A DNA stretch of 64,000 nucleotides from a phage: the sequence record PZ452594.1. One strand, 5' to 3'. Positions within the stretch are counted from its first letter, which is position 1, and every line of letters begins with the position of its first letter. Of this stretch, positions 4,937 to 62,302 are shown piece after piece. Position numbers and translations under genes: made by a program. The notes beneath the pieces are model-generated. The model was given only the letters and a program-made list of their open reading frames with translations. It was not told where the DNA came from and ran no database searches.

Positions 4937-5164
4937 TTATTTTTTCTCAACCAATGATTGAATATAATCATGCAGGTCTTTAGATGCTTTACCCCACTTA
5001 TTTTGATATTCATTTTTGAGATTAGCACGTGATTGAGCTAATAAAACATCATTAGTTGGAGGTAAAGATTCTAATCGCTGAATTTGGCGTCCATAAATCA
5101 TTGCAGCCATCTCGGATTCATAAATCAATCCTTTGAGATGTTCAAATTGATGCCATGAAATCAT
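4937..5164 (-). CDS. hypothetical protein (pseT.1-like)
   Basis: 75-aa ORF. Confidence 0.5.
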   Translation of the reverse strand: MISWHQFEHLKGLIYESEMAAMIYGRQIQRLESLPPTNDVLLAQSRANLKNEYQNKWGKASKDLHDYIQSLVEKK

Positions 5165-9857: not shown

Positions 9858-12121
9858 TACAATTTACACGCTGCACAATCGTCGGCTTTTGGAGTTTCTA
9901 TTTCATAATCATCAGTACCAGAACCATCGCGGGTATTATGATAATAGAAATTTTTTCCGCCAAAATACCAAAAATACAAAAGGTCATCAATCATTATTGA
10001 CATTGGAACCTTTCCTTTAGGGAAGATTTGGGGGTCATAGTATGTATTCGCTGAAGCTGATTGACATACCCATTTCAGCATAATAGCTACCTGCGTAAGA
10101 TAAGGTTTATTACCTTTCTTAGCTAATTTCCATGTATAATCATAGAGGTCTATGTTATGCTCAATATTGGGCACGACTTGATTAAAGGAGCCCTCTTTTG
10201 ATTCTTTAACAGAGACTGGTCCACGTGGAGGCTCGATACCGTTTGTACTGTTAGAAACTTGGGAAGATGACTCACATGGCATAAGTGCTGATAATGTGCT
10301 ATTACGGATGCCAAAGAGCTTAAGGTCTTCCCGCAGCGACGACCAGTCACAAACGTATTTTGGAGCTGCGATTTGGTCAATCTTTTTATTGTACCAGTCG
10401 ATAGGTAATTCGCCTCGAGACCAACGAGTGTCTGAATAATATTCGCAAGGTCCTTTTTCTTTGGCGATCTTAATGGATGCTTTAATGAGTCCATACTGTA
10501 ATCTCTCAAATAGTTCATGTGTTAAATCGTTAGCATCTTCATAAGAAGCAAAGTTACTTGCCAGCCAAGCTGCATAGTTAGTAACACCTACACCAAGGTT
10601 TCGACGCTTTTTAGCTTTTTCTGCTTCAGGAACTGGATATCCTTGGTAATCCAAAAGATTATCAAGAGCACGAACTTGAACTTCTGCTAATTCATTAATT
10701 TTATCTTGGTCTTGCCAATCGAAGTTATCCAGCACAAATGCAGATAACGTGCACAATCCAATTTCAGCATCAGGACTATTCACATCATTTGTTGGAATAG
10801 CAATTTCACAGCACAAGTTACTCTGACGAATAGGTGCCTTTTCACGAATAAACGGAGTGTAGTTATTCGTATTATCAATGAACTGCACATAAATCCTTGC
10901 TGTTCCTGAACGTTCAGTCATGAGCAATTCAAATAGTTCACGGGCTTTAATACGCTTTTTACGAATATTAGGGTCTTTTTCTGCTGCTTCGTATAATTCA
11001 CGGAAACGGTCTTGGTCTTTAAAATAAGAATAATAAAGCTCTCCACCCATTTCATGTGGACTGAACAAAGTAATGTAATCGTTCTTTCCAAAACGTTCCA
11101 TCATTAGATCATTCAGTTGAACACCATAATCCATATGACGAATGCGGTTTTCTTCTACGCCTTTGTTATTTTTTAAAACGAGAAGATTTTCAACTTCCAA
11201 ATGCCAAATAGGATAATAAGCAGTAGCAGCGCCGCCACGAATTCCACCCTGTGAGCATGATTTAACTGCAGTCTGAAAATGTTTCCAAAAAGGAATAACA
11301 CCAGTATGGCGTACTTCACCCATGCCAATCTTAGAACCTTCGGCACGAATCATACCAACGTTAATACCAATTCCAGCGCGTTTAGAGATATATTCAACAA
11401 TTGAAGCGGAAGCCTTATTGATAGACTTTAATGAATCACCTGCCTCAATAACAACACATGAACTAAACTGTCGAGTCGGAGTACGACAACCAGCCATAAT
11501 AGGAGTTGGCAATGAAATCTGTCGAGTAGATACTGCTTCATAAAAACGGATAACATGTTTTAATCTATCAACAGGTTCATCTTGATGCAGTGCCATTCCA
11601 ATAGTCATAAATGCAAACTGTGGAGTTTCATAAATTTGACCAGTGGTTTTATCTTTGACTAGATATTTTTCTTTTAATTGCATCGCCCCGGAATAAGTAA
11701 ATTCCATATCCCGCTCGTGCTTAATTTTTGATTCTAAAAATGTAATTTCTTCTGCTGAATATTTTGACAATAATTCAGGGTCATATTTACCTGCATTTAC
11801 ACAATAAGAAATATGGTCAATAAATGAACGTGGTTCATACTGCCCATAAACATGCTTACGAAGAGAGAACATTAAACAGCGAGCGGCTACATATTGGTAA
11901 TCAGGCTCTTCAACTGAAATAGAATTTGCAGCAGCCTTAATGACAATAGTCTGAATATCATCAGTTGTCATTCCATCACGGAGATAAGATTTAATATTTT
12001 CATATAATTCATAAGGATCTACTGATGTTCCCTCAGCTGCCCAAGATAAAACTTTAATAATTTTTTGTGGGTCAAAGCTCTGAGAAACACCACTACTTTT
12101 GATAACATTAATTAATTGCAT
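9857..12121 (-). CDS. nrdA: ribonucleotide reductase large subunit
   Basis: 754 aa; class I RNR catalytic-site motifs (NLCCEI, PCESSS) and C-terminal CxxC redox pair. Confidence 0.95.
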   Translation of the reverse strand: MQLINVIKSSGVSQSFDPQKIIKVLSWAAEGTSVDPYELYENIKSYLRDGMTTDDIQTIVIKAAANSISVEEPDYQYVAARCLMFSLRKHVYGQYEPRSFIDHISYCVNAGKYDPELLSKYSAEEITFLESKIKHERDMEFTYSGAMQLKEKYLVKDKTTGQIYETPQFAFMTIGMALHQDEPVDRLKHVIRFYEAVSTRQISLPTPIMAGCRTPTRQFSSCVVIEAGDSLKSINKASASIVEYISKRAGIGINVGMIRAEGSKIGMGEVRHTGVIPFWKHFQTAVKSCSQGGIRGGAATAYYPIWHLEVENLLVLKNNKGVEENRIRHMDYGVQLNDLMMERFGKNDYITLFSPHEMGGELYYSYFKDQDRFRELYEAAEKDPNIRKKRIKARELFELLMTERSGTARIYVQFIDNTNNYTPFIREKAPIRQSNLCCEIAIPTNDVNSPDAEIGLCTLSAFVLDNFDWQDQDKINELAEVQVRALDNLLDYQGYPVPEAEKAKKRRNLGVGVTNYAAWLASNFASYEDANDLTHELFERLQYGLIKASIKIAKEKGPCEYYSDTRWSRGELPIDWYNKKIDQIAAPKYVCDWSSLREDLKLFGIRNSTLSALMPCESSSQVSNSTNGIEPPRGPVSVKESKEGSFNQVVPNIEHNIDLYDYTWKLAKKGNKPYLTQVAIMLKWVCQSASANTYYDPQIFPKGKVPMSIMIDDLLYFWYFGGKNFYYHNTRDGSGTDDYEIETPKADDCAACKL

Positions 12122-12438
12122 AAGTCCTCAACTTGAAAATCGTCTTTAAACAATCGGTTAACTATATGAGCTATTATATCACCATGACACGGCTTTGGTT
12201 TACATGTGCATCCTAGCCTCATTCCACGTAAAGGCTCTAAATGTGCTTTAGTTATTTCTCCGGATTTAATTCGACGTATAAAATCTTTTTTGAATAATTC
12301 AATGGCAGCCTCCCGGCTGCCAGCATCTTTACCGACGTAATTTCCCCAAAATGTACCACGGTGAATATTAACATCAAAGTCGGATTTGTATTTATTCACT
12401 ACCCGGCATAGACGGCCCACGCTGGAATAATTCGTCAT
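12112..12438 (-). CDS. hypothetical protein (nrdA.1-like)
   Basis: 108-aa ORF overlapping nrdA start. Confidence 0.5.
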
Positions 12439-12667
12439 ATTGTTTTTCCGTTAATACAGTAATATCATAGTAACAATCGGAAGAAGTTTTAACTGTGGAA
12501 ATTTTATTATCAAAATACTCACGAGTCATTTTATGAGTATAGTATTTTTTACCATAAATGGTAATAGGCTGTTCTGGTCCTGGAACTTCTAACTCGCTTG
12601 GGTTAGGAAGTGTAAAAAGAACAACGCCAGAAGTATCTTTAAATCGTAAAATCATATATCCTCGCAA
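12392..12667 (-). CDS. hypothetical protein (nrdA.2-like)
   Basis: 91-aa ORF. Confidence 0.5.
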
Positions 12668-12675
12668 TAATAAAA

Positions 12676-13536
12676 TTACACCGCCATCTTTCCTTTAATA
12701 GGAGGGTGTGATTCATAGTTGTTAAGAACAAAATTATGCGGCTTTGCGAATTGACTCAACCAAAATACCTGCGATTCTGTGTCCCATTCATCAAATTCAT
12801 CTGGAAATTTTAATTGCAATTCGCATAAATCCATAGGTTCACGACGTAAAATTTCTTTACATTGTTCTACGTGATTCATATAGATATGAGTATTACCGCC
12901 AGAAAATATCAAATCTCCCGGAATAAGATTACACATCTTAGCTACAATATGAACTAACGTAGCATATGATGCAATATTAAATGGAAGACCGAGGAAAACA
13001 TCTACCGAACGTTGATACCACTGGAGGTCAAGGTATCCGTTACGAACATTAAATTGATAGAACATATGACAAGGCGGTAATGCCATATATTTAAGTTCAG
13101 CTGGATTCCATGCAGAAACAATTTGACGCCTATCATTTGGCAGTTTTTTAATACGATCAATAACTTCTATAATTTGGTCTACACCGCCAAAATCACGCCA
13201 CTGTTTTCCATAAATTGGACCAAGTTCACCGCTATGGTATCCTAAATCTTTTGCTTGATTTTCGTAATTTTCATCCCAGACTGTTTTGCCTTGGATTAAC
13301 GAATCATGCTGAATTAATCGTAAATCATTGACATTTGTGCTTCCTGACAAAAACCATATTAACTCAGCAATGCAAGCTTTCCAGGCGAGCTTTTTAGTTG
13401 TTACTGCAGGAAAACCTTTGGTTAAATCCCAACGCAATTTAGTACCAAACAAAGCAATTGTTCCTGTGCCTGTTCGGTCATCGGTTTCATAACCATTTTC
13501 AAAAATGTCTTTAATTAAATCTTGGTATTGTTTCAT
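12676..13536 (-). CDS. td: thymidylate synthase, uninterrupted
   Basis: 286 aa; ThyA active-site region with catalytic Cys (PPCH); no intron. Confidence 0.95.
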
Positions 13537-13580
13537 TTAGTACCTTATATAAATTATAATACATTTTATGAAGCTAATAA

Positions 13581-13940
13581 TCAATACGGTTTAGCATCAA
13601 ATTTTCTCTCAATTTCAGGCGTGAAATATAATTCTTTACCGCGTTTGGAAAAACGACCAATAATATGATAATTATTCTCATCAAACGTGATATTACCAAT
13701 ATTCATAGCTTTCAACCAAATATCGATATTTCTATCCAGCTTTATGTCAAAATTCCAGTACGGAGAACTATTACCGAAAATACTGCAAGCGGATTCAGTG
13801 AAACAACTGCTATAAATCTTGTCCTTAGGAACTACTAATTGATAGACACCTTTAATAAACTGAGGACCCTGCCATTTTGGTTGTTTCGTGTCTTTTTCTA
13901 ATAGAATAGGGTAATAATTAAAATTCATATTTTCCGCCAC
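13581..13940 (-). CDS. hypothetical protein located between frd and td
   Basis: 119-aa ORF with no recognisable motif. Confidence 0.55.
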   Translation of the reverse strand: MAENMNFNYYPILLEKDTKQPKWQGPQFIKGVYQLVVPKDKIYSSCFTESACSIFGNSSPYWNFDIKLDRNIDIWLKAMNIGNITFDENNYHIIGRFSKRGKELYFTPEIERKFDAKPY

Positions 13941-13948
13941 GCGTTATT

Positions 13949-14771
<823 letters not shown>

Positions 14772-14787
<16 letters not shown>

Positions 14788-15131
14788 TGAAAGGGGCCAG
14801 AAGCAAATCCGCTATCTTTAATCATTTTAACTAAAGTTACCATTCCTCTGTTAACTGCTTGCGCGATTTCATCAAAAACTTCATCATTATCACCATAAAG
14901 ATCGCTAAAAAGTTCTAACACATTCTTCTGAACTTTTAATTTACAGCCAACAAATTCGCCTACAGTAAATTCGTTTCCGCCAACTCCAGCGTAAAACGTA
15001 ATTACACCAGTTAATGGTCTTTCACTAGAACATAGGTCGTGTGATAAATTAATATAAGCCGTCCCGGGTACAGTTTTAAGTTGGCAACGAATACTTACTC
15101 GAGCAATTCCAGCTACATGAATGTCAGACAT
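14772..15131 (-). CDS. hypothetical protein
   Basis: 119-aa ORF. Confidence 0.5.
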
Positions 15132-15141
15132 AATATTTTCC

Positions 15142-15384
15142 TCAAATAGACTTTTTCACAATTTTCCAATCAGCTTTAAACTGCTCGACGTCAGAATGAT
15201 AAATCCAGAATCCTGCGCTTTCTCCATCCTCATAAAGAGGGCATCCATCGCATTCATCTTCCCATCCCATGCCACGTAAAAGGTGTTCAGCTTTTTCAAC
15301 AAGTTCAGAATCTTTACCGATGATATTAAAATACCATTTACCTCTAACTTCCGAATCTTTGATGCTCTGACGTTGTAATCTCAT
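15142..15384 (-). CDS. hypothetical protein
   Basis: 80-aa ORF with SD AAGGAGAATAAA before ATG. Confidence 0.5.
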   Translation of the reverse strand: MRLQRQSIKDSEVRGKWYFNIIGKDSELVEKAEHLLRGMGWEDECDGCPLYEDGESAGFWIYHSDVEQFKADWKIVKKSI

Positions 15385-15409
15385 TTTATTCTCCTTAATT
15401 GATAGGGTA

Positions 15410-15439
15410 ATAGTATCACACTACTACCCTTCTGTAAAC
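15410..15439 (-). promoter_or_regulatory. T4-type early promoter (GTTTAC-18-TACTAT)
   Basis: GTTTAC at 15434-15439, -10 at 15410-15415 (minus), upstream of the 15142-15384 ORF. Confidence 0.5.
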
Positions 15440-15804
15440 TACTTTTTGAAAGTTTTTTGCAAAAGTTCAATGATTTCGTCTGCATTGTTTTCGTCAACAA
15501 TGCAGTGAATTTTTGTTACGCCAGAAACCTTGTCTTCGATTTCATCTTCTTCAGAAGTCGGTTCTTTATACTCACGAAAACAATGAAATTCGTCTTCACA
15601 AACGTTAAAGTAAAAATGCTTTCCATTTGCGCATTCAATGTGTTTTATTACTCTAAATCCATCAACAAAGAAAGCTTCTTTAACTTCAAACCATCCGCCA
15701 TTTTCTTGAATAATTTTAACTATTGCTGAATTAGAACGTGGGCGATAATTAATAAATGTATCAATAAGTCTTGGAACAAGTTCATACTTTTTACCGATAT
15801 ACAT
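15439..15804 (-). CDS. hypothetical protein
   Basis: 121-aa ORF. Confidence 0.5.
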   Translation of the reverse strand: MYIGKKYELVPRLIDTFINYRPRSNSAIVKIIQENGGWFEVKEAFFVDGFRVIKHIECANGKHFYFNVCEDEFHCFREYKEPTSEEDEIEDKVSGVTKIHCIVDENNADEIIELLQKTFKK

Positions 15805-15848
15805 TATGTTTTCCTCATTTTAACGGGGCTGTAATAGCCCCTTGATAA

Positions 15849-16076
15849 TTATTGTTCAATCAATCCCATGTAAAATTCTGCGTCTTCAGAATCCATACCA
15901 TCACAATATTCATTAGCCATAAAGCGGGTGAGGTCTTCAAGAGGACCTTCAATAACGATTTGAATACTCCAAAACTTAGAATCTTGCACGCTTGTGATAC
16001 TAAGTTCAGGATAACGATTACGAATAATTTCTTCGATATATTCAAAATCAACGATGTCAATATCAACTTTAGCCAT
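15849..16076 (-). CDS. hypothetical protein, 75 aa
   Basis: Track ORF 15849-16139 trimmed to the internal ATG with SD AAAGAGGAAAATAAT; the extension would overlap the promoter. Confidence 0.5.
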
Positions 16077-16119
16077 ATTATTTTCCTCTTTAATCATCAG
16101 CAGTATTGCCGATAGTTGT

Positions 16120-16149
16120 ATAGTACCATAGAAGGACAAGGATGTAAAC
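16120..16149 (-). promoter_or_regulatory. T4-type early promoter (GTTTAC-18-TACTAT)
   Basis: GTTTAC 16144-16149, -10 16120-16125 (minus); shares the conserved box ATAGTTGTATAGTACCA with other copies. Confidence 0.6.
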
Positions 16150-16173
16150 CGTTTTGTGAAAAAATTTTTTGAA

Positions 16174-16199
16174 ATAAAAAGGGGACCTCTAGGGTCCCC
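16174..16199 (-). terminator. intrinsic terminator after gene 32
   Basis: Hairpin GGGGACC / TCTAG / GGTCCCC followed by U-run on the minus-strand RNA. Confidence 0.6.
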
Positions 16200-16221
16200 A
16201 ATTAATTAGTAATATAATCTA

Positions 16222-17130
16222 TTAAAGGTCATTCAAAAGGTCATCCAGGTCCGTGTCATCAGCACTAGATGAACTACCAGAGCTTGAGCTCATAAAATCA
16301 TCTTCAGTTTTTGTATTGAAGTCATCAACATTGAATGCATCCAAATCATCAGCAACTTTATCAGCTTTCTTAGCAGCAGTTGCAGCGGCACCACCCATAG
16401 CAGCAGTTCCCATAACTTGGCTGAACTTAGTGCTCAGTTCTTCAAATGATTTGAATTTATCTTTAGAAGTCATTTCAGAAAGGTCAACCATTTGTTCGAA
16501 CAGTTCTTTCTGGAAAGATTCATCATCAATGTTTGGAATCGCAGATTGATTCAGGAATTTAGATTCATCGTAGTTACTAAATCCGGAAACTTGTTTAACT
16601 TTCAGTACAAAGTTAGCACCTTCCCACGGACAAGTTACATCAACCGGAGTTTCACCCATTTCAACATCAACTGCAATCATTGCATTGATTTTATCCCAGA
16701 TTTTCTTACCAAAACGGTATTTAAATACTTTACCTTCGTTTTCTGGAGCAGCTGGGTCTTTTACTACAAGAATGTTAGCCCAGTAAGAAGTTTTACGTTT
16801 AACAAGACTGTACTCTTTATTGTCAGTGTTGTACAGATCATTTTTACTGATGTATTGACATACTGGGCAAGAATCGTAATCACCGTGGGTAGATGAACAG
16901 TTTTCAATATACCATTTACCATTTTTCTTGAAACCGTGATTTACAAGAATTGCGAATGGTGCTTGTTCATCATTTTTAGACGGAAGAAAACGAATTACTG
17001 CTTGACCGTTACCCGCATTGTCGAGTTTCAGTTTCCACTCGCCTTTATCTTCAGAAGAAAAACCACCTTTATTTCCAGCCAGTTTAGCCATTTGTGCAGC
17101 GAGTTCAGCAGTAGATTTACGTTTAAACAT
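16222..17130 (-). CDS. 32: gp32 single-stranded DNA-binding protein
   Basis: 302 aa; zinc-ligand region and acidic serine/aspartate-rich C-terminal tail typical of T4 gp32. Confidence 0.95.
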
Positions 17131-17221: not shown

Positions 17222-17229
17222 ATAAGCAA

Positions 17230-18218: not shown

Positions 18219-18465
18219 AAAGTTCAACTACCTCTTCAGTTTCAGCTTCAAACACATCACGGTTATCTTTATGATACAAAGCTAACAGACGATTAAACAT
18301 CTTGCCATCAACACCAAGTTCATCTTTGGCACGAATTCGAATATCTTTAATCAGTTCATTATAACCGGAAATTTTCAGTTTATGATCAGATGCTTCTTTA
18401 ATAAATTTAGCCAAGTCTTCGCCATGGATAGCTTCATCAAATTCAACCATTTCTTTTTTAGCCAT
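18196..18465 (-). CDS. dsbA: DsbA double-stranded DNA-binding protein
   Basis: 89-aa ORF; position and length as in T4. Confidence 0.8.
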   Translation of the reverse strand: MAKKEMVEFDEAIHGEDLAKFIKEASDHKLKISGYNELIKDIRIRAKDELGVDGKMFNRLLALYHKDNRDVFEAETEEVVELYDTVFSK

Positions 18466-18473
18466 TATTCACC

Positions 18474-19391
18474 TCAAAATTCATTAATGCTATTAGTTAA
18501 TTTAGAAAGACCCGCTTTTACAAAATATGAATAAATTTTGCCACGCGGTGGTAATTTATATGAATTATAGTAATTCACAATGTTTGAAGCAATATTATCA
18601 GGAATATAATCAAAATCAATTAGAACTAAATTTTCTTTATAACGATTATATTCAGATTCTGTGAGAAGCACCTTAGCTTGCTCACGGTCATTAGCAATAG
18701 CTTCAACGATTGAAGTTTTCATTGAAGGAGTTCGTTCACCTTCAACTTTGGTAAACCAAAAGTCAGATCGTACTTTAACTGAAGCAACGTTATCCTTTTT
18801 GTCGCCTTTAAGGATTTTAGTCATACAGTCAATTTCAGCAGAACCGCTTTTAATTTTAACCCATTTCTTATGCATCGGTGACCATTGCTTAACATTTGGA
18901 TATTTGTGAAGTTGAGTAAAGTCACCATCAGATGAAATGATTAAAATCTTGTGTCCTTCTAAAGAGAACTTTTTAACAAGAACAGCAATGTGGTCATCTG
19001 CTTCATACTTATCAATATCCATAACAATGTATGGCATATAAGCTTTCAATTCATCTATGACTTTATGACTGGATTCAAAATAACCTTCCCAGTCCCAAGT
19101 AGATTCTTCTCGTGCTTTTCCGCGGTTTTTCTTGTAATAGTAAGCGAAATCACGACGCCAATATCCAGATTTCGCGTTATCAATACACAGTACAATTTTA
19201 GTGTATCCAAGCGTTTTTGCTTTTTTGACATTAAACTTAATTGAGTTCAATATCAAATGACGAACCATTGATAAATTAATTTTTTCTTTATCTGGGAAGT
19301 TTACCAAAGCAGTTGAAAGCGCAATTTGACTAAAGTCAATAAAGCAAATTCCTTCTTTGTAATCTTCATCCAGCATCATTTCTAAATCCAT
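18474..19391 (-). CDS. rnh: RNase H (5'-3' exonuclease, FEN-1 family)
   Basis: 305 aa from internal ATG (MDLEMMLDEDYKEG...). Confidence 0.92.
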   Translation of the reverse strand: MDLEMMLDEDYKEGICFIDFSQIALSTALVNFPDKEKINLSMVRHLILNSIKFNVKKAKTLGYTKIVLCIDNAKSGYWRRDFAYYYKKNRGKAREESTWDWEGYFESSHKVIDELKAYMPYIVMDIDKYEADDHIAVLVKKFSLEGHKILIISSDGDFTQLHKYPNVKQWSPMHKKWVKIKSGSAEIDCMTKILKGDKKDNVASVKVRSDFWFTKVEGERTPSMKTSIVEAIANDREQAKVLLTESEYNRYKENLVLIDFDYIPDNIASNIVNYYNSYKLPPRGKIYSYFVKAGLSKLTNSINEF

Positions 19392-19453
19392 ATGAACCTC
19401 GTTCAATTAGTGAGATTTCTATTATATACCATCCAAATCTTAAAGTAAACAAG

Positions 19454-19461
19454 TATAAATA
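19454..19461 (+). promoter_or_regulatory. late promoter TATAAATA for gene 34
   Basis: Exact TATAAATA ~35 nt upstream of the gene 34 ATG with SD GGAG. Confidence 0.6.
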
Positions 19462-19495
19462 CTTATTATTGAAAACACAATAGGAGCCCGGGAGA

Positions 19496-23368: not shown

Positions 23369-23376
23369 GAGGTATT

Positions 23377-24492
23377 ATGGAAAAATTTATGGCAGAGTTT
23401 GGACAAGGATATGTCCAAACGCCATTTTTATCGGAAAGCAATTCAGTAAGATACAAAATAAGCATAGCGGGTTCTTGCCCGCTTTCTACAGCAGGACCAT
23501 ACGTTAAATTTCAGGATAATCCTGTAGGAAGTCAAACATTTAGCGCAGGTCTTCATTTAAGAGTTTTTGACCCTTCCACGGGAGCATTAGTTGATAGTAA
23601 GTCATATTCTTTTTCGACTTCAAATGATACTACATCTGCTGCTTTTGTTAGTTTCATGAATTCTATTTCAAGCAATAGACTTGTTGCTATATTAACTAAC
23701 GGAAAGGTTAATTTTCCTCCTGAAGTAGTATCTTGGTTAAGAACCGCCGGAACGTCTGCCTTTCCATCTGATTCTATATTGTCAAGATTTGACGTATCAT
23801 ATGCTGCTTTTTATACTTCTTCTAAAAGAGCTATTGCATTAGAGCATGTTAAACTGAGTAATAGAAAAAGCACAGATGATTATCAAACTATTTTAGATGT
23901 TGTATTTGACAGTTTAGAAGACGTCGGAGCTACCGGGTTTCCAAGAAGAACGTATGAAAGTGTTGAGCAATTTATGTCGGCAGTCGGTGGAACTAATAAC
24001 GAAATTGCGAGATTGCCAACTTCAGCTGCTATAAGTAAATTATCTGATTATAATTTAATTCCTGGTGATGTTCTTTATCTTAAAGCACAGCTATATGCTG
24101 ATGCTGATTTACTTGCTCTTGGAACTACAAATATATCTATCCGTTTTTATAATGCATCTAATGGATATATTTCCTCGACACAAGCTGAGTTTACTGGGCA
24201 AGCTGGGTCATGGGAATTAAAGGAAGATTATGTAGTTGTTCCAGAAAATGCAGTAGGATTTACGATATATGCACAAAGAACTGCACAAGCTGGTCAAGGC
24301 GGAATGAGGAACTTAAGCTTTTCTGAGGTATCAAGAAATGGCGGTATTTCAAAACCTGCTGAATTTGGCGTCAACGGTATTCGTGTTAATTATATCTGTG
24401 AATCTGCTTCACCTCCGGATATAATGGTACTTCCTACACAAGCATCGTCTAAAACTGGTAAAGTGTTTGGGCAAGAATTTAGAGAAGTTTAA
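23377..24492 (+). CDS. 35: gp35 long tail fibre hinge protein
   Basis: 371-aa ORF immediately after gene 34. Confidence 0.85.
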   Translation: MEKFMAEFGQGYVQTPFLSESNSVRYKISIAGSCPLSTAGPYVKFQDNPVGSQTFSAGLHLRVFDPSTGALVDSKSYSFSTSNDTTSAAFVSFMNSISSNRLVAILTNGKVNFPPEVVSWLRTAGTSAFPSDSILSRFDVSYAAFYTSSKRAIALEHVKLSNRKSTDDYQTILDVVFDSLEDVGATGFPRRTYESVEQFMSAVGGTNNEIARLPTSAAISKLSDYNLIPGDVLYLKAQLYADADLLALGTTNISIRFYNASNGYISSTQAEFTGQAGSWELKEDYVVVPENAVGFTIYAQRTAQAGQGGMRNLSFSEVSRNGGISKPAEFGVNGIRVNYICESASPPDIMVLPTQASSKTGKVFGQEFREV

Positions 24493-24497
24493 ATTGA

Positions 24498-24520
24498 GGG
24501 AGCCTTCGGGTTCCCTTTTT
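24498..24520 (+). terminator. plus-strand intrinsic terminator / stabilising hairpin after gene 35
   Basis: GGGAGCC / TTCG / GGTTCCC followed by TTTTTCTTT. Confidence 0.55.
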
Positions 24521-24523
24521 CTT

Positions 24524-24531
24524 TATAAATA
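24524..24531 (+). promoter_or_regulatory. late promoter TATAAATA for genes 36-37
   Basis: Exact TATAAATA 24 nt upstream of the gene 36 ATG. Confidence 0.6.
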
Positions 24532-24554
24532 CTATTAAAATAAAGGGGCATACA

Positions 24555-25220
24555 ATGGCTGATTTAAAAGTAGGTTCAACAACCGGAGGCTCTGTCATTT
24601 GGCATCAAGGAAATTTTCCATTGAATCCAGCCGGTGACGATGTACTCTATAAATCATTTAAAATATATTCAGAATATAATAAACCACAAGCTGCTGATAA
24701 CGATTTCGTTTCTAAAGCTAATGGTGGTACTTATGCATCAAAGGTAACATTTAACAGTGGCGTGCAAATACCATATGCTGTAAACAATACAAACCAAAGC
24801 GGTATTTATCCTGGCAATGGTGATGCTGCTACTTTTGATACAGCAAATATTGATATTGTTTCATGGTATGGCATTGGTTTTAAATCATCACAAGGATCTG
24901 CAGGTAGAACTGTTGTTGTTAACACTCGTACCGGTGATATCAGCACTAAAGGTGGTATTTATGCAATCGGACCCGTCCGTTCTAACGTTACCGCTCCAGT
25001 TGCAGCAAATGACCTTACTAGAAAGGACTATGTTGATGGAGCAATAAATACTGTTACGGCAAATGCGAACTCTAGAGTGTTGCGTTCTGGCGACACTATG
25101 ACAGGTAATTTAACCGCACCAAACTTTTTCTCGCAGAATCCTGCATCTCAACCTTCACACGTTCCACGATTTGACCAAATCGTAATTAAGGATTCTGTTC
25201 AAGATTTCGGCTATTATTAA
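24555..25220 (+). CDS. 36: gp36 long tail fibre distal connector
   Basis: 221-aa ORF; length and position as in T4. Confidence 0.85.
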
Positions 25221-25228
25221 GAGGACTT

Positions 25229-28200
25229 ATGGCTACTTTAAAACAAATACAATTTAAAAGAAGCAAAACCGCAGGTGCACGTCCTGCTGCTTCAGTATTA
25301 GCCGAAGGTGAATTGGCTATAAACTTAAAAGATAGAACAATTTTTACTAAAGATGATTCAGGAAATATCATTGATCTAGGTATTGCTAAAGGCGGTCAAA
25401 TTGATGGAAATGTAACTATTGATGGAACTTTACGCGTCAATGGACCAATAAACAACTTTGGAAATTTTTCTACAAATGGTACTATTACGGCAAGTAATAT
25501 TGTTTCTGCTACAGTATTCAGATCAACATCCGGTTCATTTTATACAAGAGCAATAAATGATACTGCAAATGCCCATCTTTGGTTTGAAAATACAAATGGC
25601 TCAGAACGTGGCGTTTTATATTCAAAACCGCAGTCTGAAAATGAAGGCGTAATTACAATGCGTGTTCGTCAAGGAACCGCTGCGGGAGCTCAAAATTCAG
25701 AATTTCATTTCATTTCTACTGATGGCGGTATCTTCCAGGCACGTAAGTTAACTGCTTTAACTTCTATTAGTACACCAACTATTAGTGTTAATTTAATTAA
25801 TCATGATTCTAAATCATTTGGACAATACGATTCACAATCTTTGGTTAACTATGTTTATCCTGGAACTGGTGAAACAAATGGCGTAAACTATCTTCGTAAA
25901 GTTCGCGCTAAGTCCGGTGGTACAATTTATCATGAAATTGTTACTGCCCAAACAGGCCTGGCTGATGAAGTTTCTTGGTGGACTGGTAATACACCGTTAT
26001 TTAAACTATATGGTATTCGTAACGACGGTAGAATGATTATTCGCAATAGCTTGGCCATTGGTACTGTGACGCAAGGGTTTCCGTCAAGCGATTATGGAAA
26101 TGTTGGGGCACTAGGAAATATATTTCTTGCTTTAGGTGATAATGGAACTGGTCTAGTTTATAGAAAAACCGGCGTATTTGATTTTGTTGGTTCTGGTTTA
26201 TCTTTGGCATCTATTACACCTGATAGTTTCCGTAGTACCCGTAAAGCAATTTTTGGTCGTTCCGAGGACCAAGGTACAACATGGATTATGCCTGGCACTA
26301 ATGCTGCTTTCTTGTCTGTTCAAACACAAGCTGATACTAACAATGCTGGAGACGGGCAAACTCATATTGGGTACAATGCTGACGGTAAAATGAGTCATTA
26401 TTTCCGCGGTAAAGGCAAAACTAATATTAATACTCAGGAAGGTGTGGACGTTAACCCTGGTATTTTAAAATTGGTAACTGGTTCTAATAACGTACAGTTT
26501 TATGCTAACGGAACAGTATCTTCAATACAAAGAATTAAATTTGATAATGGATTAGTTCTTACTGGTGCTAGACCCGATGGTATTCAACTTGACGCTCCTA
26601 CAACAACAGATGGCACTAAAACTATATTGTGGGCCGGTGGTACTCGCGCAGGTCAGAATAAAAGTTATGTATCTATCAAAGCATGGGGTAATGCCTTTAA
26701 CGCATCTGGCGATCGTTCCCGTGAAACAGTTTTTGAGGTAGGTGATGGGCAAGGTTACCATTTTTATTCTCAACGTGTAGCTCCTGCGCCTGGTTCGACT
26801 GTCGGGCCTATTCAACTACGAGTTAATGGTGGTTTATTAACTTCAGGTAGTATTGTTGCTTCTGGTTCTATTACAACCGAATCTTCTTTGAGTGTTAATA
26901 ATGGCATGTCAGTAAACGGTGAATTAAAGGTTGGTGGTACCGCAGATAACTTCCGTATTTGGAACGCTAAATACGGCGCTATTTTCCGTCGTTCAGAAGA
27001 TTCCTTGTATATAATTCCTACAGCCATTAACCAAGGCGAAAGCGGTGGAATAAGCGATATAAGACCGTTCAGTATTAACCTTGGCACTGGCTCTGTTGTA
27101 ATGGGTAACCATACTCAAGCGGGTAAAAACCTTTTCACGGTTGATAACGTTTCTAAATTAGTACAAACTGATGTTCGTTTCCGTGTTAACATGGATTCCG
27201 ACGGTATTGTTTTGAATGCTTCTTCTCAAGCAGCGTCTAACTTTATCCAAGGACGTAAAGCGGATGTTACAAAATGGTATCTCGGTATTGGCGACGGTGG
27301 TAACGTTGTTCGTTTACATAACTATACCTATTCCCACGGTATTGCATTAAACTCTGATACTGTAGATATTACTAAGCCTCTTAAAATTAATAATATTCGA
27401 ATTGGTACAGATGGCAACATCACAGGTGGTACTGATAATTTTGCCAATTTAAATACAACGTTAAACAATAAAGTCAATGTTGGTGGTTGGTCAGGCGGAG
27501 CTACAACTGGGTGGTATAAGTTTGCGACAGTTAATATTCCTCAATCTACTGGAACAGTATCATTTAAAATATATGGTGGTTCAGGATTTAATTTTAAAAG
27601 TTATGGGCAAGCTTCTGTCGCAGAAATAATTCTTAGAACTGGAAATAATCCTAAAGGACTTAACGCTACATTATGGAACAGAACTTCTGAAGCATTTTCA
27701 CAAATTGCTACAGTTAACACAAGCAATGATACATATGACGTTTATGTTTATGTGGGAGGATATTCAAATGCTTTAGTCGTCGAATATTCATGTACCAGTA
27801 ATAGTACAGTAACTGTTGTTGGTGTTAATGGAGGAATTCAACCTATTGTTGAAACACTTCCAGAAGGTCATGTAGTAGGTAAAACTGTAAGATTATTGAA
27901 TAACATCGATGGAATGTTTGCTGCTGGTGAATCTGATGTTGTTACTCGTGGTGAATTTGTTACCAATAACCAAAAAGGTTTACGCATTAAATCTAGAGGC
28001 AACGATATTGATTCTAATGCTGTTATTATTCGAAATGATGGTGGAAGTTTTTATATTCTAGCTACAGATAAGAATACATCATCAAATCCTGATGCTGCAT
28101 CAGGTAATTGGAATAATTTAAGACCTTTCTCCATTAATATGGCTGATGGTCGCGTTGGTATGAACCATGGTCTAAATATTACCGGCGGTGGCTTGAATGT

Positions 28201-29071
28201 TACTGGTGGCTTGAATGTTACTAGCGGTAATACTAGTTTAGGTAATATCTCGTCTCGTGTAGTAGCAGGTTGGCGAGGAGCGTCTGGTTGGGCTGATAAC
28301 TCGGATACAATGAAATCTAAAATCACCTTTATGGCAGACCATGGGGATTTATCTAATTCAGGCAGTTATTATCCTATTGTAGGTGCATACAGCAACTATG
28401 GTTCAGCAGGTTATCGTCAAACCTTTGAATTTGGATGGGTCGGCTCTGGTACCACCGCTGGGTGGCGAGAAGGTATTATTCGTATTCGCGGAGATAATGC
28501 TAACGGCCAGCAAGCAAGATGGCGCTTTACAATGAACGGTATTTTAGATTGCCCTGGTAAAGTACAGATGCCACAAACAAGCGCATTTGGTGTCAATACA
28601 ACAAATGGATGGGGTGGTAACTCAATTGCGATAGGTGATAGCGATACTGGTTTTAGACAAGTAGGCGATGGGCTTTTAGAAACATGGGCAAACAACGTTA
28701 AGGTCGTTCGTTATACTTCAAGTGAAGTTTATTCCGAGAAAAACGTCAACGCTCCTAACGTTTATATTCGTTCTGATATTCGTTTGAAATCTAATTTCAA
28801 GCCTATTGAAAACGCGCTCGAAAAGGTTGAACAACTTGATGGTTTAATCTATGACAAAGCTGAATATATAGGCGGTGAACCTGTCCAAACAGAAGCAGGT
28901 ATTATAGCTCAAACGTTGCAAGACGTTTTACCAGAAGCCGTCCGTGAAACAGAAGACAGCAAGGGTAATAAAATACTCACTGTTTCTTCTCAAGCCCAGA
29001 TTGCTCTTCTGGTTGAAGCTGTGAAAACACTTTCTTCTCGTGTAAAAGAACTTGAATCTAAACTTATGTAA
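25229..29071 (+). CDS. 37: gp37 long tail fibre distal subunit
   Basis: 1280-aa ORF following 36; C-terminal ~110 aa resemble a fibre chaperone-like domain. Confidence 0.9.
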
Positions 29072-29101
29072 AAGAGGGCTTCGGCCCTCTAAGGATTTTT
29101 A

Positions 29102-29887
29102 ATGGCAATTGTAGGTGTTCCTGGCTGGATTGGCGAATCTGCCGTGAATGAAACTGGACAACGCTGGATGGATGCTGCAATGAGAGCTGTTCGTGTTTCA
29201 GTTCCTGGTTGGATGAGCTCAATGGCTGGACAATCTAAAGAAGTATATTACAGCATTGGTGCTAGTAATTCTTATAATAAAGACACGTTAATAAACTGGA
29301 TAAAAGCCCAAGGCAGTACTCCTGTTGTTATTACTATTACAGGAAATATTGTTTCTCAATCTACTGGTGTTCCATGCTTAGATTTTCCTAGCTCATTAAC
29401 TAATGCATACGTGACACTTAATATCAATTCAGGCGTGCATGTTTGGGGCCGTGGCGGGAATGGCGGAAATAACTCTGCCGGTGGAGCAGGAGGAACTGCA
29501 ATAAATAATGGAATTGGAACTAGATTGCGTATTAACAACAATGGTGTTATCGCAGGAGGCGGTGGCGGCGGTGGAGGCGGATATTATTCTCCTTTTTCAC
29601 AAATGAAATTGACTTTTGGCGGTGGCGGCGGTCGTCCATTTGGTGCTGCTGGCGGGTCTGCTAATATGGAACAGGGCGCTACTGCTGGTACTATTTCTGC
29701 ACCTGGTAAAGGGTCTGTCAATGGTATCTATAATGGCGGGAATGGCGGTGATGCTGGTGCCGCAGGTGGTAAATGTAATATTCGTGGGCAAGGATCAGAA
29801 TATAACGGCGGTGCTGCTGGTAAGGCTGTTACTGGTAATGCTCCAACTTGGACTAAAGTTGGTACAATATATGGTTCAAGAGTATAA
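29102..29887 (+). CDS. 38: gp38 receptor-recognising adhesin (T2 type, glycine-rich)
   Basis: 261 aa with poly-glycine blocks (GGGGGGGGGY, GGGGGRPFGAAGG, NGGNGGDAGAAGG) separated by variable segments. Confidence 0.85.
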   Translation: MAIVGVPGWIGESAVNETGQRWMDAAMRAVRVSVPGWMSSMAGQSKEVYYSIGASNSYNKDTLINWIKAQGSTPVVITITGNIVSQSTGVPCLDFPSSLTNAYVTLNINSGVHVWGRGGNGGNNSAGGAGGTAINNGIGTRLRINNNGVIAGGGGGGGGGYYSPFSQMKLTFGGGGGRPFGAAGGSANMEQGATAGTISAPGKGSVNGIYNGGNGGDAGAAGGKCNIRGQGSEYNGGAAGKAVTGNAPTWTKVGTIYGSRV

Positions 29888-29918
29888 TTTTGAATAAATA
29901 TCCTTAAAAGGAGGGTCT

Positions 29919-30575
29919 ATGGCAGCACCTAGAATATCATTTTCGCCCTCTGATATTCTGTTTGGTGTTCTAGATCGCTTGTTCAAAGATAATGCTACCG
30001 GGAAGGTTCTTGCTTCCCGAGTAGCTGTCGTAATTCTTTTATTTATGATGGCGATTGTTTGGTATAGGGGAGATAGTTTCTTTGAGTACTATAAGCAATC
30101 AAAGTATGAAACATACAGTGAAATTATTGAAAAGGAAAGAAATGCACGCTTTGAATCTGTCGCCCTGGAACAACTCCAGATAGTTCATATATCATCTGAG
30201 GCAGACTTTAGTGCGGTGTATTCTTTCCGCCCTAAAAACTTAAACTATTTTGTTGATATTATAGCATACGAAGGAAGATTACCTTCAACAATAACTGAAA
30301 AATCACTTGGAGGATATCCTGTTGATAAAACTATGGATGAATATACAGTTCATTTAAATGGACGTCATTATTATTCCGATTCAAAATTTGCTTTTTTACC
30401 AACTAAAAAGCCTACTCCCGAAATAAACTACATGTACAGTTGTCCATATTTTAATTTGGATAATATCTATGCTGGAACGATAACCATGTACTGGTATAGA
30501 AATGATCATATAAGTAATGACCGCCTTGAATCAATATGCGCTCAGGCGGCCAGAATATTAGGAAGGGCTAAATAA
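29919..30575 (+). CDS. t: holin
   Basis: 218 aa; single N-terminal transmembrane segment and large periplasmic domain as in T4 T. Confidence 0.92.
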   Translation: MAAPRISFSPSDILFGVLDRLFKDNATGKVLASRVAVVILLFMMAIVWYRGDSFFEYYKQSKYETYSEIIEKERNARFESVALEQLQIVHISSEADFSAVYSFRPKNLNYFVDIIAYEGRLPSTITEKSLGGYPVDKTMDEYTVHLNGRHYYSDSKFAFLPTKKPTPEINYMYSCPYFNLDNIYAGTITMYWYRNDHISNDRLESICAQAARILGRAK

Positions 30576-30848
30576 TTATTTGTTCGTATACATCTCTAGA
30601 TATCGATATACACCCTCAAAACCCTCGTTGAATTCGTCGATGAGGGTTTTCTTATCTTCTTGAGTTAATTCAGAAACAATTTTACGGAATGAATTCTGAT
30701 TTAACTTTCTACCTTCATGCGTTACTCCAATCTCATTCAGAAATGCAATAAAATTAGCACGATTCTCAACAATATCTTCTCTGGAAAATTTAATCAAAAT
30801 AGACGCAACAGTAATAATTTCACGAACTGTATCAATGTTTTTATTCAT
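30576..30848 (-). CDS. asiA: anti-sigma-70 factor
   Basis: 90-aa ORF matching T4 AsiA by recall. Confidence 0.92.
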   Translation of the reverse strand: MNKNIDTVREIITVASILIKFSREDIVENRANFIAFLNEIGVTHEGRKLNQNSFRKIVSELTQEDKKTLIDEFNEGFEGVYRYLEMYTNK

Positions 30849-31009
30849 TAACTATACCACTCAATTAGTTGACTTTGTTATAATATCATCAGACGCTTGA
30901 TTTGTAAACTGGTCTGTGTTATTTTCTTCAAAAATTTTTTCTACGAATTCTTTGAACGACTCACGTTCCTGAGCTACATTATGCTCGATTACCTTTTCAA
31001 GATTATGAC

Positions 31010-31288
31010 TCATTCGAAATAATCTTCAATTTCATAATCATGGACATAAATCATTATAGTTTTTAATACATCATCAATACTTTTTCCTGGAGCTGGAATT
31101 ACGTAAAAATATCCTGCTTTTGAGAGGTCTTTATAAGTTCCAATTAAGAAATCATTATTCTCAAGATGTAGTTCTTCAACTAATTCATTAACAATTGAAT
31201 GGTATAAATTTGGTAGAAACTTATATAGCTTTTCTAGAATATCAATTTTGATTGTGTATTGAACCACGGACTGAGAATCAATAATCAT
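31010..31288 (-). CDS. arn: Arn-like anti-restriction protein (McrBC inhibitor)
   Basis: 92-aa ORF at the expected position. Confidence 0.55.
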   Translation of the reverse strand: MIIDSQSVVQYTIKIDILEKLYKFLPNLYHSIVNELVEELHLENNDFLIGTYKDLSKAGYFYVIPAPGKSIDDVLKTIMIYVHDYEIEDYFE

Positions 31289-31371
31289 AGACCTTCCCCT
31301 TATGTTTCTGTTTGCGATTAGATTCTTTAAACGCTTTCTTCTTATCCTTATGAACAGAAGCTTTATTAAAA

Positions 31372-31584
31372 TTATGTTTTGCGACTAAATTGTTCATAGT
31401 GCTGAATTACCTCTCTCAAACATTTGCATGTGAATGAAAACTTTTTAGCTACACCACATTCAAATATATGTTCTCTTAAATCGCGTGTATCGGTATATCC
31501 CATCTCAACAATAAAATGCCGTATTAGATTTTTATCATTGAGAGAATTAAAATAGTCAGATTTTGAATTAATTTCCCTGGCCAA
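31372..31584 (-). CDS. hypothetical protein
   Basis: 70-aa ORF containing cysteines. Confidence 0.45.
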   Translation of the reverse strand: MAREINSKSDYFNSLNDKNLIRHFIVEMGYTDTRDLREHIFECGVAKKFSFTCKCLREVIQHYEQFSRKT

Positions 31585-31864
31585 ATTGAATCACCTTCAG
31601 TTGACGTTTTAGCTCTTTTATCATTTCTTCGTTCATCGCAATATAAAGATCGCGTAAAGCAGGTTTTAGCATGTCATTTATTATAGAACTAAATGGGCAT
31701 ACATATTCTTTTCCTACAAGCTTTTTGGTGAATTCCATATCACAGAACTTAAATCCCGGCTCATTGGTATAAATTCCCCAATTAGTTGACATCATTTTAT
31801 TGGCATATTCTAGTGCCTGGATTTGATTCATAATTCCATCAATTTGAAACTTTTTAATATTCAT
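31568..31864 (-). CDS. hypothetical protein
   Basis: 98-aa ORF. Confidence 0.5.
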   Translation of the reverse strand: MNIKKFQIDGIMNQIQALEYANKMMSTNWGIYTNEPGFKFCDMEFTKKLVGKEYVCPFSSIINDMLKPALRDLYIAMNEEMIKELKRQLKVIQFGQGN

Positions 31865-32325
31865 TAGTAAAGGTCCTCAGAGTAAAGTTCTTTTTCACTA
31901 CCACCACGTTCAATACGTACTTGTCCAGCGTAAGTTGCAATAATCATTGCTTCTTCACGTGTCCAATAATTACTATATTGGTCAATAAACCCTTGGTCAT
32001 CATCACAAACTTGCTGAGTAACTAATTGAGGTTTAACTACATCTAAAACTTCTGCCATATCTTTAGAATAATGACGAGCACCTGGAATAATAAGAGTTCG
32101 TCCATCTTTTAATTTAAAACGGTTGGCTGCACAGACAATTCGTCGTTGATACTTTTGGTTTTCATCCCAATATGCAGTCTGCCAACAGATTTCAGGAACT
32201 TCTTTCAGAATATCTTCTTCTGTACATTTATAACCATGCGCTTTAAATTTTTCAACAAGACTTTCTGGAGTCTCACGAGATAAAGGCACATTCAGCATTT
32301 TTAAACGATTAATAAATGGGTTCAT
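31864..32325 (-). CDS. hypothetical protein
   Basis: 153-aa ORF. Confidence 0.5.
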
Positions 32326-58721: not shown

Positions 58722-59084
58722 TTAAAAGAATTTAAATTTTTTCTTTGACCTTTTATTAAATGCATCTTGTAGTTGCATTGTAATACATTTTTCTACATGA
58801 GGAGCTAACTCAGCTTTTCTTTCTTGGTCAAGAACAGCAAAGTCCATTACAACCTTTCCATTAACCCAATCTAATTTTGTCACATACACAATGTGTGTAG
58901 AACCATCTTCTAGTTTAATGACAATCTCCTGGATAACATTTTCCATGGCAGATTTAATTATCTTAAGAGATTCATTAAAAAGACGTTCTTTTCTTTCTTC
59001 TTCCCCCTCCGAAGAGGGGGATTCATCGATAATTTCTAGATCTAAATCTAAATCATCTTTATTCATTAAATTCTTCCATATCAC
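58722..59084 (-). CDS. 40: gp40 head-assembly accessory protein
   Basis: 120-aa ORF between 41 and uvsX. Confidence 0.6.
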   Translation of the reverse strand: MIWKNLMNKDDLDLDLEIIDESPSSEGEEERKERLFNESLKIIKSAMENVIQEIVIKLEDGSTHIVYVTKLDWVNGKVVMDFAVLDQERKAELAPHVEKCITMQLQDAFNKRSKKKFKFF

Positions 59085-60240
59085 TTAGCTGATCTAGGTC
59101 AGTTTCTAAATCAGCTGCTGATTTACTTTTACTTTCTGAGGATTTAAATTTTTCAACTTTTGAGTTAATTAATTCATCAACTTCCGCTTCAACAATTTCA
59201 TTACTATCAATAGCACCTAACTGATAAGCACGCTTAATAGCATCACGGAATGGTTGATGCTTAAATAAAGGACCCCAGAATGTAGTGCAGTTGGTATCTT
59301 TTGCACGCCAAGATTTTTCTTCGCGAATCATCTCGCCGGTTTCTTCATCAAGAAATTCACGAGCATACCAACCATTCTTAGGTTTTACTACAAATCCTAA
59401 TTCTAGAGCCATATCTAACAATCCAGAATAAGGATCGATACCGCCGTCAAATTTAACATCAATAAAGAATTTACTTTTTTCTTTAACTGTACGAGATTTT
59501 TCTACATTTAGAACAAATTGATACCCCTGAAGATCAGAACCATCTTTAATCTGACGCTTACCGATAATGAATACAGTATCAGCCGAATACATTACACCTG
59601 TACCGCCTGTCATTACGGTTTTGCTAAACATTTCAATTGTTTCAATTGTATGGTTAACCGCAACACATGGAATATTTTTAATGCTAAAATAAGGAGTAAC
59701 AATACGGAATAATGACTTCAGTGATTTAGCACGAGTCATATCTGCCACAGATTTTTCATTCAAGGCATCTTCCGTTTCTTTCTTAGAAGCCATATTACCG
59801 ATTGAGTCGATGAATACAATAACTTTTTCACCGCGCTCAATAGCTTCAAGCTGATTCACCATATCAATTTTCAGCTGTTCAACTGACTGAATTGGCGTAT
59901 GAATTACTCGTTCCGGGTCAACTCCCATGGATCGCAAATAAGCTGGAGTAATACCAAATTCGCTATCATAGAATAGACAAACCGCGTCAGGATATTTGTT
60001 CAAATACGCCGCAACCATAGTCAAAGACATATTTGATTTAAAGTGTTTAGAAGGCCCTGCGAAAATAGTTAAACCAGACTGCATACCGCCATCAATCGCA
60101 CCAGAAATAGCGATATTAAGCATTGGGATTTTTGTACGGATTACATCCTTTTCATTAAAGAATTTAGATGTAGTCAGTTCAGCAGTCATTTTAGAAGTGG
60201 AAGCTTTAATCAAACGGGATTTTAAATCTGCAATAGACAT
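59059..60240 (-). CDS. uvsX: UvsX recombinase (RecA-like)
   Basis: 393 aa; Walker A GPSKHFKS and RecA-fold motifs. Confidence 0.93.
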   Translation of the reverse strand: MSIADLKSRLIKASTSKMTAELTTSKFFNEKDVIRTKIPMLNIAISGAIDGGMQSGLTIFAGPSKHFKSNMSLTMVAAYLNKYPDAVCLFYDSEFGITPAYLRSMGVDPERVIHTPIQSVEQLKIDMVNQLEAIERGEKVIVFIDSIGNMASKKETEDALNEKSVADMTRAKSLKSLFRIVTPYFSIKNIPCVAVNHTIETIEMFSKTVMTGGTGVMYSADTVFIIGKRQIKDGSDLQGYQFVLNVEKSRTVKEKSKFFIDVKFDGGIDPYSGLLDMALELGFVVKPKNGWYAREFLDEETGEMIREEKSWRAKDTNCTTFWGPLFKHQPFRDAIKRAYQLGAIDSNEIVEAEVDELINSKVEKFKSSESKSKSAADLETDLDQLSDMEEFNE

Positions 60241-60317
60241 TCATTTTTTCCATAGGCATCATTATATTTTCCTCACTGGTTAAAGATAGAGTAATTATAA
60301 CACAATAAATTTAGGCA

Positions 60318-61166
60318 TTAATCAACTGCTATTGGATGAATAGCATTAAACTTATGAAATGCTTCTGATTTTTCTTTACGCGAAACACACATGCGAAGAA
60401 CCTTTAATGGCTCATCTTCTTCACCCAACGATTTTCGTTTTTCAATATTAGAAGTTTTCCAACGAGCTTGCTCTGGAAACTCTCTGTTGATTTGCTCAAG
60501 CGCTCTATTATGTTTAGAATTACTACGAATTGAACTGCACCCGCCAGGAGCTTGTGCTTTTCCAGATACAACCAGATATTTGAACAAGGCCAAATGCGGA
60601 TAACCTTGATTAATTAAATTGAGAAATGCATACATATCTTCGCACAAATCAATTTTTCCATACCCAATTTGTTCTGTCGTAAGTTTTCCAAGGTCATACC
60701 ATGTATTCGTGAATCCATATGAATTTTCACGATAATTACCCCAAGATGAAGTAATTTTAAAAATTGGTAGACGAGCATGGCCATGATAATACCCACAATC
60801 CATGGCATCCTCAACATATTGAATCAATTCATAGAACTGTTCACGGGTTAATTGATTGACTTTATCTACACAGCGACGATCATCTCTTTTTCGCATTGAG
60901 CTCATACGAATCGTAGTATCATCGTCAATCATCCAGATTCGTTGACCTGCATACATATCAGTAATTGCTTTACGAGTACCGGCAATTCCATTTACGTCAT
61001 CAGGAATAGTTATAATTTTAGCTCTAGACCCATAGGCATCATAATAAGCTTTTTCTTCATGTTCACGCACTACAATATGGGGTTCATAATCAGTCGGAAA
61101 CATATCAAGGGCAGAAACTGCCCCGACACGCTGATAACTTGGAATTACGAATTGAATCATTTCCAC
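60318..61166 (-). CDS. putative DNA-modifying glycosyltransferase (non-T4 type, DxD motif)
   Basis: 282-aa ORF at the locus where T4 carries beta-gt; contains WMIDDDTT. Confidence 0.55.
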   Translation of the reverse strand: MEMIQFVIPSYQRVGAVSALDMFPTDYEPHIVVREHEEKAYYDAYGSRAKIITIPDDVNGIAGTRKAITDMYAGQRIWMIDDDTTIRMSSMRKRDDRRCVDKVNQLTREQFYELIQYVEDAMDCGYYHGHARLPIFKITSSWGNYRENSYGFTNTWYDLGKLTTEQIGYGKIDLCEDMYAFLNLINQGYPHLALFKYLVVSGKAQAPGGCSSIRSNSKHNRALEQINREFPEQARWKTSNIEKRKSLGEEDEPLKVLRMCVSRKEKSEAFHKFNAIHPIAVD

Positions 61167-61904: not shown

Positions 61905-62054
61905 TCAATTGATACATTCATATTTAACTTGTAACAGTAATAAACCCCAACCTATAATAAGTGGCGGAATCATAAGAGGAACTGTTACGCTATAGTATAT
62001 ACTTATTATAACCATCAAGATTAAAAGCAACACTGCTATAATTTTGCTTTTCAT
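61905..62054 (-). CDS. small hydrophobic protein, 49 aa (below track cutoff)
   Basis: ATG overlaps the imm stop (ATGA); MKSKIIAVLLLILMVIISIYYSVTVPLMIPPLIIGWGLLLLQ... Confidence 0.4.
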   Translation of the reverse strand: MKSKIIAVLLLILMVIISIYYSVTVPLMIPPLIIGWGLLLLQVKYECIN

Positions 62055-62302
62055 TCTTTCTCTCTGATGATAATTACCTGATTTGGATGTGCAGACTTTT
62101 TGGTTTCACCCGCAATTGACCAAATGAATGTAATAAACCAACCAATAATTGACCAATTAAACAGTAAAGACGTGAAAAAGATTCCTACTGTCGATTTTGA
62201 CCCACGCATCAAGGCGATGAACCATGGAAGCATGTATATAATAATAGCCAACACACCTGAAACTAAAACCATAAAAATTGAACCTGCTACTAAAGTTTCC
62301 AT
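62051..62302 (-). CDS. imm: Imm immunity-to-superinfection membrane protein
   Basis: 83 aa with two transmembrane segments; length and position as T4 Imm. Confidence 0.65.
   Translation of the reverse strand: METLVAGSIFMVLVSGVLAIIIYMLPWFIALMRGSKSTVGIFFTSLLFNWSIIGWFITFIWSIAGETKKSAHPNQVIIIREKE

Follow-up and report, generated by a model that had tools for sequence, protein, structure and literature searches.

The ba-gt enzymes of T2 and T6 produce gentiobiosylated 5-hydroxymethylcytosine (gentiobiosyl-hmC), at levels of 5% in T2 and 72% in T6 (PMC6024577). Deletion of ba-gt from T6 leaves only alpha-glucosyl-hmC and increases the sensitivity of the phage to Brig1, a glycosylase that does not degrade wild-type T6 DNA in vitro (PMC11078745). 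Analysis of NR1 DNA by HPLC/MS has shown approximately two thirds alpha-5-gentiobiosylmethyl-dC and one third 5-hmdC, with mono-glucosyl forms present only as background, and the position of the TAGT gene was noted by the NR1 authors to be syntenic with that of T4 beta-GT (PMC13390438). The TAGT of T6 has independently been placed as a GT-A enzyme within a sister group of GT2, in contrast to the GT-B alpha-GT and beta-GT (PMC13216743). There is nothing new in the system itself: its activity, the gene, the GT-A fold, the synteny with T4 b-gt and the counter-defence role are all published, the latest in 2024–2026.

The DNA analysed here, referred to as the window, is a stretch of 64,000 nucleotides of phage DNA (sequence record PZ452594.1). 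Between uvsX and gene 42 it carries a gene that almost certainly encodes a T2/T6-type beta-glucosyl-HMC-alpha-glucosyltransferase (ba-gt; Pfam TAGT, PF20691), a DxD-containing protein of about 32 kDa with a GT-A fold. Its identity, synteny, family and fold class come from the present analysis; the chemistry and the biological consequence are drawn from the literature.

The ba-gt gene and its locus

A 282-aa open reading frame lies between uvsX and gene 42 on the minus strand (60318..61166), with a translation that includes ...QRIWMIDDDTTIRM... and the motif WMIDDDTT, and likewise ...GQRIWMIDDDTTIRMSS... Both the ORF list and the matches of the neighbouring genes bear out the earlier note, which had described such an ORF at this position. 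Its length of 282 aa holds for the reading frame itself but not for the start of the protein. That figure results from beginning the frame mechanically at the GTG at 61166. In the sequence GTG-GAA-ATG found there, the ATG two codons further on (61160) is most likely the true start, since this is the codon from which the homologues are annotated; it gives a protein of 280 aa. From this codon the gene overlaps gene 42 by 4 nt, as it does in the annotations of T2, Bas39 and NR1. The resulting ATGA layout (Table 1) is typical of translational coupling and suggests that ba-gt is probably translated in a manner coupled to gene 42.

Table 1. Features of the ba-gt locus, in window coordinates.
Feature	Position	Strand	Basis or remark
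uvsX, RecA-like recombinase, 393 aa, downstream neighbour	59059..60240	-	RecA-family matches; UvsX annotated there in T2, T6, Bas39, NR1
ba-gt–uvsX spacer, 77 nt	60241..60317		
Extended -10 element TGtTATAAT	60294..60302		Within the spacer
ba-gt CDS, 280 aa + stop	60318..61160	-	ORF; start per T2, Bas39 and NR1 annotations
C-E-D, residues 173–175	60636..60644	-	D175 invariant
WMIDDDTT, residues 76–83	60912..60935	-	Sequence; DDD (residues 79–81) at 60918..60926, DxD-type motif
GC-rich hairpin with T-rich tail	61108..61124	-	ba-gt codons 13–18
IPSYQR motif, residues 6–11, first beta-strand	61128..61145	-	Invariant residues; strand E2–6 in model
ATGA overlap	61157..61160	-	Read from sequence; ba-gt start codon 61160..61158 on gene 42 stop codon 61159..61157
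Gene 42, dCMP hydroxymethylase, 246 aa	61157..61897	-	Thymidylate-synthase-family matches; gp42 annotated at syntenic position in T2, T6, T4, Bas39, NR1
49-aa ORF	61905..62054	-	Strongly hydrophobic
imm ORF	62051..62302		

The dCMP hydroxymethylase encoded by gene 42 supplies the hmC to which glucose is subsequently added. The order uvsX, ba-gt, 42, imm is the same in T2, T6, Bas39 and NR1. Over its final 20 kb, the window shows approximately 97% identity to Tequatrovirus phages, among them Maryam, EH2, AR1 and NR1, the last being one of its closest relatives. As judged from its sequence, the phage is a T2/T6-type Tequatrovirus carrying the classical T2/T6 ba-gt. Searches with tblastn found neither a-gt nor a T4-type b-gt in the 64-kb window. 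Bas39, T2 and T6 carry a-gt between genes 47 and 55, a locus that would fall some 12 kb past the window's right edge.

Several further features of the region were recorded. The spacer separating ba-gt from uvsX is short, and in T4 this interval holds the GIY-YIG homing-endonuclease gene segA. Within the spacer is an extended -10 element, and 13 nt upstream of it a TGCCT with one mismatch to the MotA-box core TGCTT; together these resemble a T4-type middle promoter for uvsX, which the consensus scan did not report. Consensus scans for promoters and terminators around ba-gt gave counts at chance level (11 against 11.0 expected; 2 against 1.2). Inside the 5' end of ba-gt, the hairpin GGGGCAGTTTCTGCCCT is GC-rich and precedes a T-rich tail; it appears terminator-like by a simple scan, with the count of such sites across the region equal to that in shuffled sequence. 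A small, strongly hydrophobic ORF between gene 42 and imm shares 4 nt with the end of the imm ORF. Bas39 and NR1 list it as a hypothetical gene, and the matching 153-nt gap of T4 is without annotation. No tRNA genes were found in the window. An apparent split of gene 43 at the right edge of the window was rejected, as the translation is a single continuous frame running off the window; the split is an artefact of the ORF list, which begins gene 43 at an internal ATG.

Family membership and fold

The protein matches PHROG 842, 'beta-glucosyl-HMC-alpha-glucosyltransferase', with an E-value of 2e-89 over residues 2–277. It also matches Pfam TAGT (TET-associated glycosyltransferase, PF20691) with 38.9 bits, above the gathering score of 27.5 bits, with residues 5–209 aligned to profile positions 2–205 of 205. 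Both matches agree with the earlier assignment of the ORF as a glycosyltransferase. The comparison with T2 and T6 that had been suggested identified the gene as that very enzyme: the protein shares 99% of its residues with the T2 enzyme over 280 aa, and 99% with that of T6 over the annotated 261 aa. Protein alignment gave 100% identity to the 'hmC beta-alpha-glucosyltransferase ba-gt' of Bas39 (FriedrichMiescher), and at least four of the phages listed by tblastn are 100% identical, Maryam, UTI-E2 and Sf25 among them. The NR1 protein agrees at 279 of 280 residues, the sole difference being the conservative change D24N.

The gene is intact and ordinary, and hundreds of sequenced phages carry it. 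Megablast against 50,697 phage records returned at least 475 records at 90–99% nucleotide identity. The phages are all T-even-like, with Escherichia, Shigella, Yersinia, Salmonella and Citrobacter as hosts, and many of the records annotate the gene as beta-glucosyl-HMC-alpha-glucosyltransferase. With tblastn, 689 records matched, 250 of them at 99% identity or more. NCBIfam holds no model for the protein, and a sequence search of all PDB chains found no relative, the best match (E-value 1.6) being an irrelevant PNPOx-like protein.

To describe conservation within the family, nine sequences with identities down to 28%, the lowest being metagenomic, were aligned. Invariant residues include I6, P7, S8, Y9 and R11 in the first beta-strand, M77, the three aspartates D79, D80 and D81, and D175. 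The IPSYQR motif is presumably the counterpart of the nucleotide-binding start in GT-A/GT2-like enzymes. In the predicted model the DDD motif follows a core beta-strand (E74–79). By analogy with the acid of the ED/TED motif of GT2 enzymes, D175 is a candidate for the catalytic base of an inverting GT-A enzyme.

Structure prediction relied on a shallow alignment, the word-indexed protein search having returned 11 clusters, and this limits the confidence of the model. It is moderately confident, with pLDDT below 50 at residues 131–150, 203–211 and 243–251. Whole-chain comparison by Foldseek gave weak TM-scores of 0.2–0.43 to solved GT-A structures, while the N-terminal nucleotide-binding half fits well, at approximately 3.7–4.5 Å over some 95 residues. 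The GT-A matches comprise the catalytic domains of cellulose, chondroitin and hyaluronan synthases, WrtF, AvpGT, TarP/TarS, GalNAc-T, mannosylglycerate synthase and SpsA; related sugar-nucleotidyltransferases were also returned, and no GT-B enzyme was present among the top 60 fold matches. The model contains a single Rossmann-like alpha/beta/alpha nucleotide-binding domain with the conserved DxD at the end of a core strand, and the predicted fold is GT-A-like. With DDD invariant and the fold comparison in agreement, the DxD-type GT-A motif proposed from WMIDDDTT is upheld, and the same has been published for the T6 TAGT (PMC13216743).

Proposed reaction, allelic variants and alternative readings

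After replication, the phage alpha-glucosyltransferase would add an alpha-linked glucose to 5-hydroxymethylcytosine in the DNA. The ba-gt enzyme would then transfer a second glucose from host UDP-glucose to alpha-glucosyl-hmC in a beta-1,6 linkage, giving gentiobiosyl-hmC. Because the donor UDP-glucose is alpha-linked and the product beta-linked, the reaction is expected to invert configuration. The DDD motif presumably binds the diphosphate of UDP together with a divalent metal, and D175 is the candidate for a conserved acid that may act as the base. The gentiobiose would change which modification-dependent defences attack the DNA and would shield alpha-glucosyl-hmC from Brig1-type glycosylases.

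The earlier note had predicted an hmC sugar pattern different from that of T4, with altered sensitivity to host restriction. The first part agrees with the gentiobiosyl-hmC of T2 and T6 (PMC6024577) and with its share of about two thirds in NR1, whose enzyme matches at 279 of 280 residues (PMC13390438); the second agrees with the greater Brig1 sensitivity of T6 lacking ba-gt (PMC11078745). We predict that the phage has the high gentiobiosylation of T6 and NR1. The level is given as a prediction because those of T2 and T6 differ 14-fold despite enzymes that are 99% identical. For annotation, the gene marks the phage as a T2/T6-type rather than a T4-type T-even phage whose DNA most likely contains gentiobiosyl-hmC. 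From that modification one can predict how the phage will respond to Brig1-type glycosylases, to GmrSD/BrxU-type restriction and to laboratory restriction enzymes.

Two of the reference alleles show unusual codons near the N-terminus. In the T6 record (MH550421), positions 4951..4953 read TAG (amber) at ba-gt codon 10, corresponding to 61131..61133 of the window; this codon is CAG/CAA (Gln) in the window and T2. Because of the amber codon, T6 ba-gt is annotated from Met20 (261 aa), a start that would cost the protein its invariant first strand with IPSYxR, despite the standing of T6 as the classic example of a highly gentiobiosylated phage. The amber codon could reflect mutation of the stock, propagation on a suppressor host or an error in sequencing. 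In T2 (LC348380), codon 11 encodes His (61128..61130 of the window), at a position where all nine aligned family members have Arg, including the 28%-identical metagenomic relative. Speculatively, His11 may be a cause of the low gentiobiosylation of T2 (5% against 72% in T6). The broader idea, that small natural differences such as T2 His11 and the amber codon 10 of the T6 record set the extent of DNA gentiobiosylation by a near-identical enzyme, is considered unlikely. If true, it would explain the old gap between 5% in T2 and 72% in T6, and the window allele, which has Gln10, Arg11 and every invariant residue unaltered, would be the sign of a phage rich in gentiobiose and shielded from Brig1.

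These variants bear on the reading in which ba-gt is inactive or hypomorphic in the window phage and its DNA is T2-like, mostly mono-alpha-glucosyl. Damaging-looking natural variants do occur in otherwise identical genes, as the amber codon of the T6 record and the His for Arg11 of T2 illustrate, and T2 has just 5% gentiobiosyl-hmC (PMC6024577). The window allele, however, is intact and matches the family consensus wherever a position is invariant, and it lies one conservative change (D24N) from the allele of NR1, which is highly gentiobiosylated (PMC13390438), making a loss of function here highly improbable. The enzyme might instead be a primary hmC glucosyltransferase of a different fold that functionally replaces T4 beta-gt on bare hmC, given that its gene sits at the exact T4 b-gt locus. 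Many phages carry a solitary TAGT homologue without alpha-GT or beta-GT (PMC13216743), and some family members may use unglucosylated bases. Against this, the protein is 99–100% identical to the T2, T6 and Bas39 enzymes, for which alpha-glucosyl-hmC is the established acceptor (PMC6024577, PMC11078745), T2, T6 and Bas39 also carry a-gt, and close relatives with a near-identical protein have no detectable beta-glucosyl-hmC (PMC13390438). Action on bare hmC therefore has very little probability; ba-gt does not functionally replace beta-gt but extends the alpha-gt product.

A transfer of another sugar was also considered, following the suggestion in the earlier note of a comparison with RB69-type arabinosyltransferases. 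GT-A enzymes use many donors and the fold alone does not set the sugar. That comparison did not yield a match: with tblastn, the 18-kb RB69 interval around uvsX–43 (coordinates 14000–32000) gave a best E-value of 2.8 to the window protein, and an RB69-type identity was rejected on this result. A different gene cluster occupies that interval, and the window comes from a Tequatrovirus with about 97% identity to NR1, EH2 and AR1, a group in which the sugars measured are glucose and gentiobiose (PMC13390438). An RB69/Mosigvirus-type arabinosyltransferase, or a transferase of any other non-glucose sugar, is consequently given next to no probability, and the glucose-transferring T2/T6-type ba-gt is retained.

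Comparison with known systems

Cellular GT2-like GT-A enzymes (SpsA, TarS/TarP, K4CP and the cellulose and hyaluronan synthase domains) share the fold class and DxD with the window protein, at approximately 10–15% identity, and inverting chemistry is expected of both. They differ in that the window enzyme uses as acceptor a sugar carried by duplex DNA, with no membrane or carrier-lipid context. The TAGT homologues of T4-like phages of Klebsiella, Enterobacter, Citrobacter and Serratia (including Merlin and PS2) align over their full length and retain IPSYxR, DDD and D175. Their genes often adjoin gene 42, with the proteins only 48–66% identical to that of the window. Several of these homologues are paired with a beta-GT rather than an alpha-GT (PMC6024577, PMC13216743), and because of this their acceptor linkage may differ from that of the window enzyme.

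In RB69 (NC_004928), the region from uvsX to gene 43 (10048..16599) is a different 6-kb cluster that contains thymidylate-kinase-like, dCMP-hydroxymethylase-similar, phosphoheptose isomerase, sugar-1-P-nucleotidyltransferase-similar and arabinose-5-P isomerase genes, with imm and imm.1 relocated elsewhere. The content of this cluster shows the locus to be a hot spot for the exchange of DNA-modification modules.

T4 b-gt, like the window gene, lies between uvsX and gene 42, and its product likewise uses UDP-glucose to form a beta linkage on modified phage DNA (PMC13216743). The T4 locus contains a 1056-nt (351-aa) b-gt with the adjacent inserted segA. The T4 enzyme has a GT-B fold as opposed to the GT-A fold of the window protein (PMC13216743), and its acceptor is bare hmC rather than the alpha-glucosyl-hmC used by enzymes of the window type. 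A diverged b-gt was rejected, as BLASTP against T4 b-gt found nothing (best E-value 2.2), in keeping with the earlier description of the ORF as unrelated to the 351-aa T4 protein, and the b-gt Pfam family gave no match at E-values up to 1.

The closest correspondence is with ba-gt of T2 and T6, which shares with the window gene its length of 280 aa, its locus and its ATGA overlap onto gene 42. Two substitutions separate the window protein from that of T2 (R11 in the window to H in T2, and P251 to S) and three from that of T6 (Y40N, D55G and R106H), with the window gene free of the amber codon at position 10 of the T6 record.
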